Of a stretch of DNA of 64,000 bases, positions 5,369 to 63,483 are shown piece by piece. This DNA is from Ginglymostoma cirratum. Its lineage: Eukaryota. The stretch's first letter is position 1, and every line of letters begins with the position of its first letter. A program made the position numbers and the translations under genes. The notes beneath the pieces are model-generated. The model saw only the letters and a program-made list of their open reading frames with translations, did no database searches and had not been told where the DNA came from. The DNA lies in assembly GCA_024137785.1 (NCBI GenBank), contig JAHRHZ010000081.1, positions 2,950,887-3,014,886 of the forward strand. The letters are read 5' to 3'.

Positions 5369-8300
5369 GTGAGTATTTGGAATAGCAATAAGGCCTTTGT
5401 TAGACAGTGATTCCTACATAGTTACAGAATAAAAATGAATCATCAAAAGGAATTTTCAAAGTAAAATAGTTTAGCATTGTTAATATTGTAGCTGTCCATT
5501 TTCTGCTGTGGACAAACTGCATAAGATTAATTTCAGTGAGGACCAAATAGCCCTTTTAAATGACATACCAGGGGTCCCTCTTAATTAGCTGAGTCAACTT
5601 CAATAGCTAAGCATGTTTGGTTTAAATAGTAACTTACTTACTTATATAGCCACCCCATGTCCGAATGTGAGTAACTCTTTCCTCCAACATTATTTCTAAA
5701 ACCACTCTGAGTTTCAAAACGGACACAAGATGACATTGCAATGCTTTAAGATACCAATACTGATTGTAAAATCATCCTGACAAACCAAATCGGAATTTGT
5801 GTTTGCTGATCTCCAAGTAATCAGTCAAATTCTACTTTCGTCATAAAAAGCCGTAATTTTATGTTGTATTTTGTTGTAAAATCAAGTCATCTCTAAGAGT
5901 TGGAGGAGATTTTCTGAGGAAACAGACTTACTCATGTTTACAATGTTTCCTTATGTTTATTGGCTTAATATCAACTAACATGGTTCTGTTTCTCTGCTAT
6001 GTGATAGTCATGATTCATTCCTCAGTGACTCTTCTGTTATGATTAGCATCTTTAGCCGTCTTTCTTGAACTACATGTCCTGCATGTGTTTTTACTGGGTT
6101 TGATGATATTTATACTTCTGTTGACTTGTTTTACTGAGTGACTGTGTACTTTAAATTAACACATGGAATAATGTAAGTGTTAACTGTCTTCTTTATCATT
6201 CGAGAACTTTTTCATACTTTAATAAAGCATTCTGAATATTCTTTTGTTACCACCATTAACTTGCATTTCTTCCTTTATCACCTGAGGCAACAGTCTGTAT
6301 TTTGGTAACAGTGATAATTTAGGTTATTATACTTGATGCATTGATTCAGGCAATAGGGCTCATCAATTGGCCATCAAGCTAGGTTAAATTTTTGAACAAT
6401 TGTATATGAATTGGTGAAATGGTACAGAAATGCCACATTGGTTTATAAAATTAAGATTTGAGATTTAGCGTTACAAGCTATGTCTTATTCAGCTTTAATT
6501 TTGTGGGACCTGTGACCCTGTGGTAGCCTGCCCATGTAGCTGTTCCTCTGTGTGATTATATTTCATTGTTGCATCTGAGCTTGTCCCATCCTCAAAATGC
6601 GTAAAGCCTGAACTCATAAAAAGGCCATTGGTACAGCCTCCTGCTGATGTATACACAGGTCCTTCCATTGAGTATCAGTGGATAACAAACAAGAGTTGCT
6701 TGGTTCTGGTATTTTTGGATGTGGCCTATTTTAGTGCCATCCTTTACACCACCACAAGTTGGGGTCCTTCATAACTCAATATCAGCATGAACTGCACTCT
6801 GAGCAATTTGCATGGCTGAAGAATGTTACCGGTAATAACATACATGCTCTTCGTCTTTATCATTATCTTTTTAAATAGTTCTGGTTGCCAGATACATTTG
6901 GATACTCTGCACAGCTGCCACAGATTATGCAGGGATGCGGTATCACACGCTTTCTCACTCAAAAGCTGAGTTGGAACCTGGTGAATGAATTCCCGGTAAG
7001 TTGCTCAGTTTAGTTGGTGGGTGCAATAGAAGGCCCAAGTTACTGATCACTGTGTTTCAAAATGCATATTAAGATAACTTGAAAATGTTCAGGGATTGTA
7101 TTATAGAGGTTGGTGCTACAGTCAGTACAATGATTTATTCCTTATTGCAAGCATTCAGATATTCTTATCAACAGACTGCCTTGCAAATTAGACATGAGCG
7201 GAAGTTGCTTACTTTTGTGCGAATGTCAACAGTCTTAGGATAATGAGTGTGGCTATTAGACTTGTTCAGGCGACTTAGCTTAGAAAGTATGAAAGAAGTG
7301 AACATCAACACAGAACACCAGAAGGCAATCGCTGATGAACATGACATCTGGAGGCAGACTATTTTTGGTGGTGGTAGTGGTCGTGGGGAGGTGGGGGGTG
7401 TGGGGAGTTGGGGAGTGTCATTGGAAGAAGCAAACTGAAATGTAAAACTTAACAGACCAAGATGGAGATCATGGCAAACAGTGTTCAGCAAATTCTGAAC
7501 TTTCTCTAACTACCGTCTTCCTCTACTGCAAATTTGGCAGACACCACCAGGCCAGAGTGGGGTTTCTAACCAACAGCAGGCACTTTTAACACAGAGTTGA
7601 CCACCAAGGCACAAACCATCATTTCACGAGACATAAGGCTGCTGAAGTGAGCACAGAATAGAAACCCTTATAGCACTGGTGTGATACTCGTCTTCCTCAA
7701 AAATACTCAGCAGGTATGGCAGTAGGAAGAAGGCAGAGTTAACATTGAGTTCTGATGAAGACTCACCAGCCTCACAATATTAACTTTATCTTCTTCCTAC
7801 AGATGTTGCCACACCTGCTGAGTTTCTCCAGCAATTTATGTTTTTGTTTCTAACCTCCAGCTTCTGCAGTTATTTGTTTTATTTTTGAGTGCTTTGTGTC
7901 ATTTCGGTCTATATTTTGCAAGTTTTCATCCAGCAAACTCACCAGAAATAAGTTGAAGCTATGTCAAGTTAATTTCATATATGCTAGTACAGGATGTATT
8001 CTCTGAGTTGAATTTCATATGAGCTCAACATACGATATATGTACCTAATTAACCAGCATAATGTGGTATTATTTGCAAGATCATCCTGCTCAGTCACATT
8101 CTGATTCCATTTAGTGCAGTAAATATGATAATTATGTGATGGCATTGGGATACATTTTATGTTTGAACTGCAATACAGGTTCAATTTAACAGAGCATACT
8201 TGACCACTCACCTGAAACTTCAACCTGTCCGTTTCCTGCATAGATGCTGTCTGATTGGTTGAGTTTTCCAGGATCTCTTACCTTTTAGACTGCGATTTTA

Positions 8301-11300
8301 CAGCGTTGACAAAGTTCTGCTTTTTATATAAAGTAGTGTGAGACTTCCACTAACCATATTCCCCTACAAAGACTAGCTCCTGGGAGTTACACGCTCCTTC
8401 ACATCAGCTTGGTCTATGACTCTGAATTTACATGACCAGTTTAATGTTGGTGTGAATCTGAAAATGGTTTGCACCAGTATTAAACCTACCTGGTATACAC
8501 GCCCTTAGAGTTTGATTCATGTACAAAACTTGAAAGACATTATCTCAGGATTTCTTTACCAAAGTCTTATCTTTTCTCTGATTATCTTTGGAGGCTTTGT
8601 CTCTGTATTTGCCATCAGTGCTATGCATGCTCAACATTTACCTCACTCAAGTAGTCATTCCCTTATTGTGAGGCAAGTTGCTGAGCATCTGCAGTTTTCT
8701 CAGTAGGAGGCATTGCACAAAAGTTGAATCTTGTCAGTGTTACTGTCCACAAAATGTGTTTCAAGCAGGGCTGTCTGAATAATGATTACTATCAGAAAAT
8801 GGTCAAATCTCCCAGCCTAGGATAATGAGGTCAGTTATGTTTAATAGATCATAAAATTAGGAGATCAGGTCGCATAAACTTTGCATATATTCTGTTATAT
8901 GTTTACATGACTGATAGGTTAAATATGGTTATATTCTGTTATATGTTTACATGGCTGATCGCTTAAATATGGAGGAACAGTTCCCACAGGTGGAAGAGTC
9001 CAGTACAAATGGGGCATAAGCTTAAAATTAATGGTAGGCCATTTGGAGGTGAAATTGAGAAGCGCTTCTTCAACATAAAGGGTGATGGAAATCTGGAACT
9101 TGCCCTCGCTGAAAGCCTCCAATGGTTTCAAGGTTAAGGTGGATAGAGTTTTATTAGGTGAGTGTGTAAGGTATATGGGACAAAGGGAAAAGTTTTGTAG
9201 ATCAGCCTGTAATCTAATTGAATTGAGGAGCAAATTTGAGGAACTAAATAGGTTACCGATAATATCACCGTCTATAGAATCTTCAACATTTGCATGGATT
9301 AGTTGCTTAATATTTATTCAGTTACTCAATTAGAAGAGTCCCTACTTTGGAGATATTGATGTTTGTCTAAAACAACTGTATCGAGGCCATTGGAGGATTC
9401 GCTTTGCGACAAGAATTGGAATATTCATGAATACTGTATGCCGTGAGCCAGGTCCTTTCTGGTGCCGTGTACCAATGTTTTTCCTGTTTTCTCATTTGGA
9501 TTTATTGTACTTTGATTATCTTGACACAGATTTTGAACTTGAAAACACATCTACCTCCATGTCCTTGTCATGTTGAGTAACATTTGTTTATCTTTCCCTC
9601 TTTGATGTTGCCAATCTTGACAGCACAACACATTCTTTTGGGAAGGAATTGATGGCTCCAGGGTCCTGACCCATTTTCCACCTGGTAACTCCTATGCAAT
9701 GAAATGTCAGGTAGAGGACGTAAGTATGAGACAAACTTCAATCTTAAGAGAAAGAGGTAGAGAGAGGCGCTGCTGATGCTCAATTACTGCAGCTTTCTGT
9801 GCAAGCATCTTGGAACACAATGACATGATTGTGCTATTTTTGTTCTCTATTTTGGAGTCTTTTAGGAAAATTCAACCCCCTACAAGCAAGTTGTGGCAAT
9901 ATGTTGTCTAACTCAGCTATAATAGTTTGTTTTGACGTTTAATTATCTGCTAGGAAGACAGGCTCTTTCAAACTTTTGTAGGAAAATCAAGACAAAAACA
10001 AGAACAGACTTTTTAAAAATCGAAAGAACTGTGGATGCTGTCAATCAGGAACGAAAACAAAGTTGCTGGAAAAGCTCAGCAGGTCTGGCAGCATCTGTGA
10101 AGGAAAAAACGGAGTTAACTTTTCAGGTCCAGTGACCTGGAAGAATACGTGCAATTTAAGCCCATTGACTAGCAGAAGGGAACCAATTTAAAAACTTGCA
10201 ATTAAAATTAAAGACTTTAAAGGTTCCCTTAAGGTTCAAAAAGGAAGCAACTCTTCACATGGAAACCTATTGAGAAGGTTTCCTTTGTATTATAGCTAAA
10301 ACCAGAAGTCGGTTTAAAAGTATAAATTAAACTTTTGACCAACTAAACAATTGTTTAAGGAAATTTTTGTCTAATGTTTTGGGAAAATAAATATTTCCAA
10401 ATTAAATAACCTTAAATATTACCACCCATAGTTGTAACAATATTGAATGTTGTATACTAGCTTATAGCCAGTCTAAATAAAGAAACCTGAGGATTTGGTT
10501 TTCCCCTTAAGAGGTTGTGGGTCAGTCCAGATGCTAAGATGTCTTGTTGTTCTACAGAGATGGTTATGAAATTTGTCAAAGGCTATATCAATTAGGAAAG
10601 ATTTAGTTGAAGCTGCCTGTTACATTGCTATCTATCTCAAAACCATTCAGTTTTCAAAGAAGGAAGTAAATTTGAATGCTTTCAATGTTGTTGTTTTGCA
10701 TAACCAGTTGTTTCATGATTCATATAGAGGGATTTATTGAGGTCATTTTAAGGGCACTGAATTTTTAATAAACACGTGCAGTGAGATCATACAGAATTTT
10801 GCTTAATTTGCCTTTCAGAATGGTTATGTCTAGCAAATAATAATTCCTATTCAAATTACATTGCCACAACTTGACAGCCAAGGAACTTTGATGTCAATTT
10901 TTTCTAAAATTGGAATTTAAAGTATTTTAGTGACAAGTATTTAATGTCTTGACTTTTTTTCTTCATTCTTTGCATGGAGTGTGGGCATTGCTGACAAGGT
11001 CGGTATTTATTGCTCATCTTAAATTACCTTTGATCTTTCTAGGCCATGGCAGATGGCAGTTAGCAGTCATGTGGGGGCCAGACCATGAAAAGGAAGGCAA
11101 ATTTCCCTCCTGAAAGGACATTAATGAACTGGATGTGCTTTTCAACGACAAATCAATGATAGTGTTATGGTCACCAGCACTGGTGCTGCCTTTTGATTTC
11201 ATAGCTTAGTAATTGAATTCAAATTCCCCAGTTGCAATGATGGGATTTGAACCCATGTCCTTTGAACATTAGCCTGGACCTCTGGAGTACAAGTCCAATG

Positions 11301-63354: not shown

Positions 63355-63483
63355 ACCAAAAGAACTGCAGATTCTGGAAATCAGAAACAAAAATCAGATA
63401 TTGCTGGAAAAACTCAGCAGGTCTGGCAGCATCTGTGAAGACAAAGCAGAGTCAACATTTCAGGTCCAGTGACCCTTCTTCAG
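63355..63483 (-). mobile_element. Penelope-derived terminal fragment with hammerhead core
   Basis: Minus strand CTGAAGA-A-GGGTC-actg-GACCT-GAAA-TGTT at 63483-63454. Confidence 0.75.

Follow-up and report, generated by a model that had tools for sequence, protein, structure and literature searches.

What are the short hammerhead-bearing repeats scattered through a shark genome, elements in their own right or parts of something larger? The question is raised by a 64,000-nucleotide stretch of Ginglymostoma cirratum DNA (the window; contig JAHRHZ010000081.1 of assembly GCA_024137785.1, positions 2,950,887 to 3,014,886, forward strand). A first-pass annotation had described it as holding one dispersed family of hammerhead-bearing, often palindromic insertions, either truncated Penelope-like elements (PLEs) or a retrozyme-like family mobilised by a PLE at 11335-12140. 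We find that the repeats are stubs of two Penelope-type elements and not a separate ribozyme parasite. Many share a fixed 5′ end at the edge of the hammerhead, which likely marks the predicted start of the element RNA. This fixed end is the useful part of the result and offers a way to test how PLEs copy themselves.

Two lineages of Penelope-like elements

Repeat search, self-BLAST and profiles recovered the repeat at all 13 sites named by the annotation. The 19 profile arms correspond to 14 insertions, the 47200 site holding two adjacent insertions of different lineages, and the reversed-sequence decoy gave no profile match. The expected density of about one copy per 5 kb was borne out (one insertion per 4.6 kb of window, one per 4.1 kb in the larger sample described below). 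Target-site duplications (TSDs) were found for six of the 14 insertions and were absent from the remaining eight. The three reported earlier were confirmed (31054, 13 bp, exact; 40313, 10 bp, exact; 43189, 19 bp with one mismatch) and three weaker ones added (25580, 12 bp with one mismatch; 45150, 11 bp with one mismatch; 47200, 9 bp, exact). The term ‘often palindromic’ holds for five of the 14 insertions, which are fold-backs.

Instead of a single family, the insertions fall into two lineages, A and B, whose reverse transcriptase/endonuclease (RT/EN) proteins are 64% identical over 423 residues. On sequence grounds, the repeats come from the terminus, made up of a minimal hammerhead, a leader and an optional 30-40 bp tail, of two endonuclease-bearing (EN+) Penelope-like retrotransposon lineages. 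Positions are numbered here with the initial C of the CUGANGA box as 0, which places the predicted cut at +30 (lineage A) or +28 (lineage B). Among 19 loci chosen by similarity to 11335-12140, at least nine carry a lineage-A terminus on the same strand, about 600-700 bp behind the open reading frame (ORF) match and 91-99% identical to the 29528 copy. The lineage-B terminus is contiguous with a frame ending in a GIY-YIG region. Pfam RVT_1 and GIY-YIG matches, below the curated cut-offs, were obtained in 4/4 partial frames with the motifs in the expected order; a Pfam search of eight window frames gave no match. EN+ PLEs are characterised by one frame encoding RT and, at its C-terminal end, a GIY-YIG endonuclease; such a frame was found here in linkage with the terminus. 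We take the elements, by resemblance, to belong to the Penelope/Poseidon clade and not to Neptune or Nematis. The ORF-linked termini, the RT/GIY-YIG frames and the core conservation given below thus support the annotated link to Penelope and its minimal type-I hammerhead.

The terminal segment stands behind the 3′ untranslated region (UTR) of RT/GIY-YIG frames and also ahead of the frame in full-length copies. In full-length lineage-A copies it continues directly into a short upstream frame, with the main frame at about +170; the repeat is therefore both the end of a pseudo-long terminal repeat (pLTR) and the element leader. This full-length-start test refers to lineage A only: among 30 loci and 12 stretches of lineage B, all truncated or partly unread, no copy was obtained whose pLTR continues into the ORF start. 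Among the top 30 similarity matches of each lineage, upstream extension was 166-1074 bp in B and 3-796 bp in A; these sets are biased to query length and were left out of the peak counts. Top-hit loci had upstream extensions of 0 to >1,000 bases, inverted arms of all sizes and a tail of about 30-40 bases. The EN+ PLE layout (partial tandem pLTR, 5′-truncated inverted arm, one-sided 30-40 bp tail, TSD) is thus present. The accessible parts of earlier reports on EN+ PLEs (PMC3846280, 10.1101/2021.04.23.441226) describe similar insertions, with a head-to-head inverted arm, a 30-40 bp tail at one end, heavy 5′ truncation and TSDs, as well as TATA and initiator-like motifs in the pLTRs, noted in rotifers. 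In contrast to those insertions, the units found here are often of only 95-250 bp, without an ORF and with one end fixed.

Lineage B is very young: 40/40 matches listed were identical over 356 bases of the RT region, and open frames reach about 780 residues. Young window copies of the short form (minis) have relatives at 96-98% identity elsewhere in the genome. The 11335-12140 fragment, held to be the mobiliser, stands apart from them as an old broken piece with best genome relatives only 72-76% identical, and this role is rejected. The fragment is lineage-A-like, and as mobiliser it also fails for the lineage-B sites (31049, 40314, 43188, 47338). The description of the copies as non-coding does not apply to the 43189 insertion, in which 43533-43592 (minus strand) corresponds to the last 20 codons of the lineage-B frame (95% identity).

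Two side observations concern lineage A. Its leader (window 29554-29581; loci L285 and L296) resembles a branch point, pyrimidine tract and AG right before an ATG, and as a predicted element could serve as splice acceptor within host introns; from this ATG runs an upstream frame of 30 codons that shares the phase of the main frame. No such arrangement was seen in B. In addition, a 412-residue open frame adjoins a lineage-A element (L111:7719-8954), and we take it to resemble a host gene exon with a carbohydrate-binding motif.

The hammerhead was then parsed position by position. In the window, the strict CTGANGA..GAAA pattern occurs on six arms in five of the 14 insertions; ‘hammerhead-bearing’ is an overstatement, and GAAACGTY is kept as well in only three arms of two insertions (29528, 43786, 43253). 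The 31054 and 25580 insertions begin behind the core, and those at 8200, 10018 and 47200 lack the first box. Stem I is of about 4 bp and reads CAGTT (A) or CATTT (B) in long copies, the annotated composite GAGTT being a minority form. An Rfam scan of the window gave no hammerhead match at E ≤ 1, only chance hairpin-type matches. In the larger sample, a parse allowing two mismatches per box covered 111 of the 151 full-hammerhead arms and missed 40, so that its counts lean high. Most core positions (CUGANGA, GAAA, U16.1, H17) are conserved in 102-111 of the 111 arms; N7 is free (A49/T39/G21), and H17 is T in lineage A and C in lineage B. The boxes stay the same across subfamilies, whereas stem II and its loop differ in sequence; the stem II pairs are retained in 94-99 arms. 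Pairing is therefore kept despite sequence change, as had been claimed, with few independent events: pair 4 alternates between U-A and U-G (55/42), and pair 2 goes from G-C to A-U in subfamily A3. CpG positions have decayed (G12 kept in 83 arms and changed in 28, C15.2 kept in 91, G16.2 in 85). Because single copies decay at CpG, selection acts on the source elements and not on the copies. Similarity between lineages A and B is 62-75% in the hammerhead region, 56-65% in the leader and 35-49% in the 55 bases upstream. The minimum-energy fold of neither monomer nor dimer is the active form, and these folds are uninformative on the predicted cleavage; the 45150 copy folds with z = -18.8.

Judged by its letters, this is the minimal hammerhead of metazoan PLE pLTRs published by Cervera and de la Pena in 2014 (PMC4209133). 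The portion of that paper available to us describes motifs that share with those found here a type-I core with an additional base ahead of stem II, the G10.1-C11.1 pair, a stem I of 4 bp and palindromic ACGU replacing stem III. Motifs standing alone, in their thousands, and pairs on opposite strands at a spacing of 100-700 bp are reported there too, and are interpreted as truncated PLEs. Stem II is of 7-8 bp there as compared to 4-5 bp here, and the same portion covers no sharks and mentions no common 5′ end next to the hammerhead.

A common start point for many copies

An unbiased sample was obtained by fetching 1,000 kb by coordinate. Two 100-kb all-N blocks were dropped and the rest contained 19,020 further N, leaving, with the window, 844,980 read bases. 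These hold 208 units with 247 arms (1 per 4.1 kb), i.e. roughly a million units in the 4.36-Gb genome if the sample is typical. The 5′ ends are concentrated at one point: 73/247 arms begin at -8..-1, or 9.1 per base versus 0.38 at -60..-11 and 1.26 at +10..+59, and 33/247 extend beyond -140. In the windows used, the fixed end is touched by 63/169 solo arms and 26/39 head-to-head pairs, i.e. 89/208 units. Fully heterogeneous breakpoints, which the annotation had set beforehand as speaking against a discrete family, were thus not observed. Its other option, truncated PLE insertions, is correct in kind; this sharp modal end is left unexplained by both.

Copies beginning at the edge are joined there to foreign DNA. 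Element upstream sequence was alignable in 0/47 edge copies versus 42/44 long copies, and the pyrimidine share just upstream was 0.50 as compared to 0.81. TSDs were found in 11/42 edge solos versus 1.5% in swapped flanks. From these three results, the sequence ahead of edge copies is host DNA. Identity to the element falls between -4 and -6 in lineage A and between -3 and -5 in lineage B. Full-length copies start there too: three of 12 ORF-linked lineage-A copies begin at -3 to -6, and a fourth at -7 beside unread bases. In RNA reads of a polyA run mapped on a natural lineage-A locus, the main 5′ loose ends lie at -4 (711 reads) and -3 (1128 reads), with unlike flanks. These junctions confirm the two positions independently of the profiles, yet they reflect copies inside host transcripts. 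At the lineage-B locus, several fold-back joints were observed at -7..+1. We also considered the peak as a profile artefact or as an unknown upstream subfamily, and rejected both by flank alignment, pyrimidine share, TSDs and RNA-read junctions.

The template end could also be made by hammerhead self-cleavage, with insertions starting at the cut. One TSD-bounded copy (25577-25685, the 25580 insertion) starts exactly at the predicted cut, and one ORF-linked copy aligns from +29. Overall there is no excess at this position: six of the 247 arms start within 2 bases of it versus 6.3 expected (p 0.61). The polyA run listed no pile of molecule ends there, and none of the joints listed (15/113, 15/205) is a circular junction at the cleavage site; polyA selection loses circles. 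In addition, cleavage is dispensable for the green anole element according to the accessible text of PMC11167929. Cleavage is largely refuted as the main route and we consider this origin highly improbable.

The 3′ ends are equally regular and fall at two points, about +92 and about +130 from the first core base (86/247 arms at +86..100, 113/247 at +121..135). Among the 39 head-to-head pairs, 20 have a TSD and 33 carry the tail on exactly one arm, and all 39 centres differ. One ‘pair’ (47200/47338) is in fact two separate insertions, and long fold-backs such as 43189 were tallied as two solos. Several copies have their own first 9-13 bases duplicated before the hammerhead (window 29516-29540; L294 near 715-726; L058; the L200 region copy at block position 170717), as if copying had restarted at the 5′ end. 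A few backward RNA joints were also seen, 41 reads from the tail end to +7 in lineage B (L348:6557-6668) and three from +173 to -3 in lineage A (L296:727-903); they may come from tandem DNA copies or circles, and none is at the cleavage site.

Promoter-like motifs and the origin of the short form

A TATA-like box is present at -35/-34 in all five profile lines (A, A2, A3, B, B2), and YYANWYY with its A at -4 in lines A, B and B2. This A is the first base of the 4-bp stem I. The fixed start coincides with an initiator-like motif and is preceded, at a distance of about 30 bases, by a TATA-like box, a spacing suited to a core promoter for polymerase II. Among the short forms, the commonest is probably DNA copied by run-off from the first 95-135 bases of uncleaved element RNA. 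Chances seem even that about a third of insertion events are ‘strong-stop’-like, i.e. primed 95-135 bases from the capped 5′ end, with the run-off copy integrated on one or both strands.

Such copying could proceed as follows. RNA polymerase II would start at the A at -4, and the element RNA would carry two copies of the leader, one at the 5′ end and one within the 3′ pLTR. The element protein would nick the target and prime at one of two internal leader sites. Priming in the 3′ leader copy would give ordinary, variably truncated insertions; priming in the 5′ copy would run off at the RNA end after 95-135 bases and give a mini. If both cut strands were primed, at different sites, head-to-head fold-backs with a tail on one arm would result. 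Minis, being without the predicted promoter, would be dead on arrival. In a fold-back transcript, the one sense hammerhead would be buried in a long hairpin, and such a transcript presumably could not form the hammerhead dimer in cis.

The closest experimental system is the green anole Poseidon element PAc, for which the accessible text (PMC11167929) reports two internal RT starts bounding the tail, extension on both strands and uncleaved RNA as template in vitro. PAc likewise has an RT followed by a C-terminal GIY-YIG domain, and a hammerhead at the front of the ORF-bearing unit. It differs in that its ORF starts in stem II, whereas the lineage-A main ATG lies about 170 bases behind the core, after the short upstream frame. 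Run-off minis are not discussed in that text; its Fig. S1-S2 may bear on short copies.

Several observations weigh against the run-off interpretation. The sample comprises four blocks of three contigs plus the window. Starts of TSD-defined edge copies scatter from -27 to +2 (7/11 within -9..-1), and 31/42 edge solos have no TSD. The initiator pattern fails in profile lines A2 and A3. A non-templated G at -5 is weak in lineage A (8/14 bases; p ~0.01, hand-pooled and post hoc), and a cap-derived G is not evident in lineage B. The strongest loose ends listed for lineage B are not at -4/-3, and no pile of molecule starts was listed in the one usable RNA run, which is unstranded (the second run gave 23 and 37 reads). 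Finally, the internal promoter of Drosophila virilis Penelope lacks a TATA box, and the hammerhead lies further in; the layout of a box at -35 and a start at -4 is therefore not general.

The main rival derives minis from the 3′ pLTR: RT would stall or switch template at the hammerhead fold or at a bound protein, making the 5′ edge a truncation hot spot and not an RNA end. Breakpoints are indeed elevated within the first bases of the hammerhead as well (32 at 0..+9), many fold-back centres fall in the stems (the 26 pairs above having an arm at -10..+3), and self-priming has been proposed for PLE palindromes in the available part of PMC3846280. A stall would however be expected at stem entry, on the 3′ side, whereas the peak is where RT has already passed the whole fold. 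In two lineages with upstream sequences no more than 35-49% alike, the peak also falls on promoter-like motifs, and full-length copies share the same start. We regard stalling as unlikely, while giving it more weight than any other rival.

Minis could also be a self-propagating non-autonomous family, similar to SINEs (short interspersed elements) or retrozymes, with an internal promoter or read-through and re-copied by PLE protein. Their discrete modal size, TSDs and very high number would suit such a family, as would the abundance of the segment in polyA RNA, where depth on the lineage-A locus is in the thousands at 0..+130, hundreds upstream and tens in the frame. An internal promoter exists in D. 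virilis Penelope, pLTR sequence alone can mobilise in trans, and animal retrozymes derive from pLTRs, the last two points as published. The RNA signal is strand-equal and its flanks are dissimilar, a picture expected of copies embedded in host transcripts. No flank is common among 50 edge copies, one inverted pair excepted. Minis are up to 99% identical to ORF-linked termini, and the fold-back centres, as noted, all differ. In the window there is no head-to-tail hammerhead array, and only 10/151 full-hammerhead arms of the sample have a same-strand neighbour within 1 kb, these being mixed subfamilies or separate insertions. Animal non-LTR retrozymes (10.64898/2026.07.22.740005, PMC7229834), known in one chondrichthyan, are likewise non-coding, with a type-I hammerhead derived from PLE pLTRs. 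In the accessible text they form head-to-tail tandems with one hammerhead per unit, whereas units here are solo or head-to-head, with no circular junction at the cut among the joints listed. The retrozyme-like option of the annotation is thus not upheld, and we view self-propagation as improbable.

If the fixed end is the RNA start, internal priming extends from one in-vitro system to a vertebrate genome, numerous solo hammerheads are explained without any ribozyme replicon, and cleavage would not make the template. If the strong-stop interpretation is true as well, some hundred thousand fossil primer-extension products map the element start site, and uncleaved RNA is the in vivo template. The hammerhead would then lie within the first 34 bases, and a cut would remove the cap, not trim a precursor. 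Very large hammerhead counts in such genomes would be mostly decaying by-products (36/111 parsed arms are strictly intact). Already published are the type of element, its hammerhead, the inverted arm, the tail on one side and the dispersal of solo copies. The fixed 5′ end and its run-off interpretation were not found in the literature searched, with Repbase, Dfam, subscription papers and supplements outside that search. Neither PLE hammerheads of sharks nor run-off minis were the subject of any paper retrieved, and no listed paper combined a PLE term with ‘strong-stop’.

Features of the window

The insertions and related features are collected in Table 1.

Table 1. Penelope-like insertions and associated features along the window
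Position	Strand	Feature	Remarks
7698-7887	+	Fold-back of lineage A, old; main arm with tail starts at -6, inverted arm short (7705-7767)	hammerhead decayed; no TSD
8200-8304	+	Decayed lineage-A stub, beginning within stem II	profile E 4e-4
10014-10137	-	Lineage-A stub with tail, from stem II (+9)	93% identity to 29528 copy
11335-12140	-	Internal piece of lineage-A-like PLE frame, old, frameshifted (RT end to endonuclease start)	tblastn 11497-12125
25577-25673	-	Lineage-A stub with tail, from predicted cleavage site (+30)	TSD 25563-25574 / 25674-25685
27871-27947	+	Decayed lineage-A mini, from -2	profile
29516-29625	+	Young lineage-A mini, no tail; intact minimal hammerhead 29528-29562	own start duplicated, 12-13 bp
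31049-31170	.	Lineage-B fold-back lacking the hammerhead; left arm carries the tail	TSD 31041-31053 / 31166-31178
40314-40524	.	Lineage-B (B2) fold-back, centre at hammerhead 5′ edge; tail on right arm	TSD 40303-40312 / 40522-40531
43188-43914	.	Young lineage-B long fold-back, two 3′ UTR + hammerhead arms; tail on right arm	TSD 43170-43188 / 43908-43926; intact cores at 43253 (minus) and 43786 (plus)
43751-43786	+	Predicted lineage-B core promoter: TATA-like box -35, initiator-like motif, A at -4 (43782)	motif match
45152-45360	.	Lineage-A fold-back, two opposed hammerheads, no tail	TSD 45144-45154 / 45363-45373, 1 mismatch
47200-47318	-	Old lineage-A stub with tail, from +14	9-bp TSD 47191-47199 / 47323-47331
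47338-47465	+	Lineage-B (B2) mini with tail, hammerhead damaged	adjoining yet separate insertion
61779-61910	+	Old lineage-A copy with tail, hammerhead decayed	weak profile extension to 61699
63351-63486	-	Lineage-A (A2) mini with tail, from -3	

Other repeats were noted in the window. The 43189 element sits at the edge of a degenerate tandem array (42470-43190) of about 18 units of 29-30 bp, and a 44-bp tandem array of about eight units occupies 34775-35200. Further dispersed repeat families are present at 929-1205, 29884-30155, 44840-45003, 11200-11310, 16931-17019, 22180-22420 and 58098-58362; we presume them to be SINE and long interspersed element (LINE) fragments.

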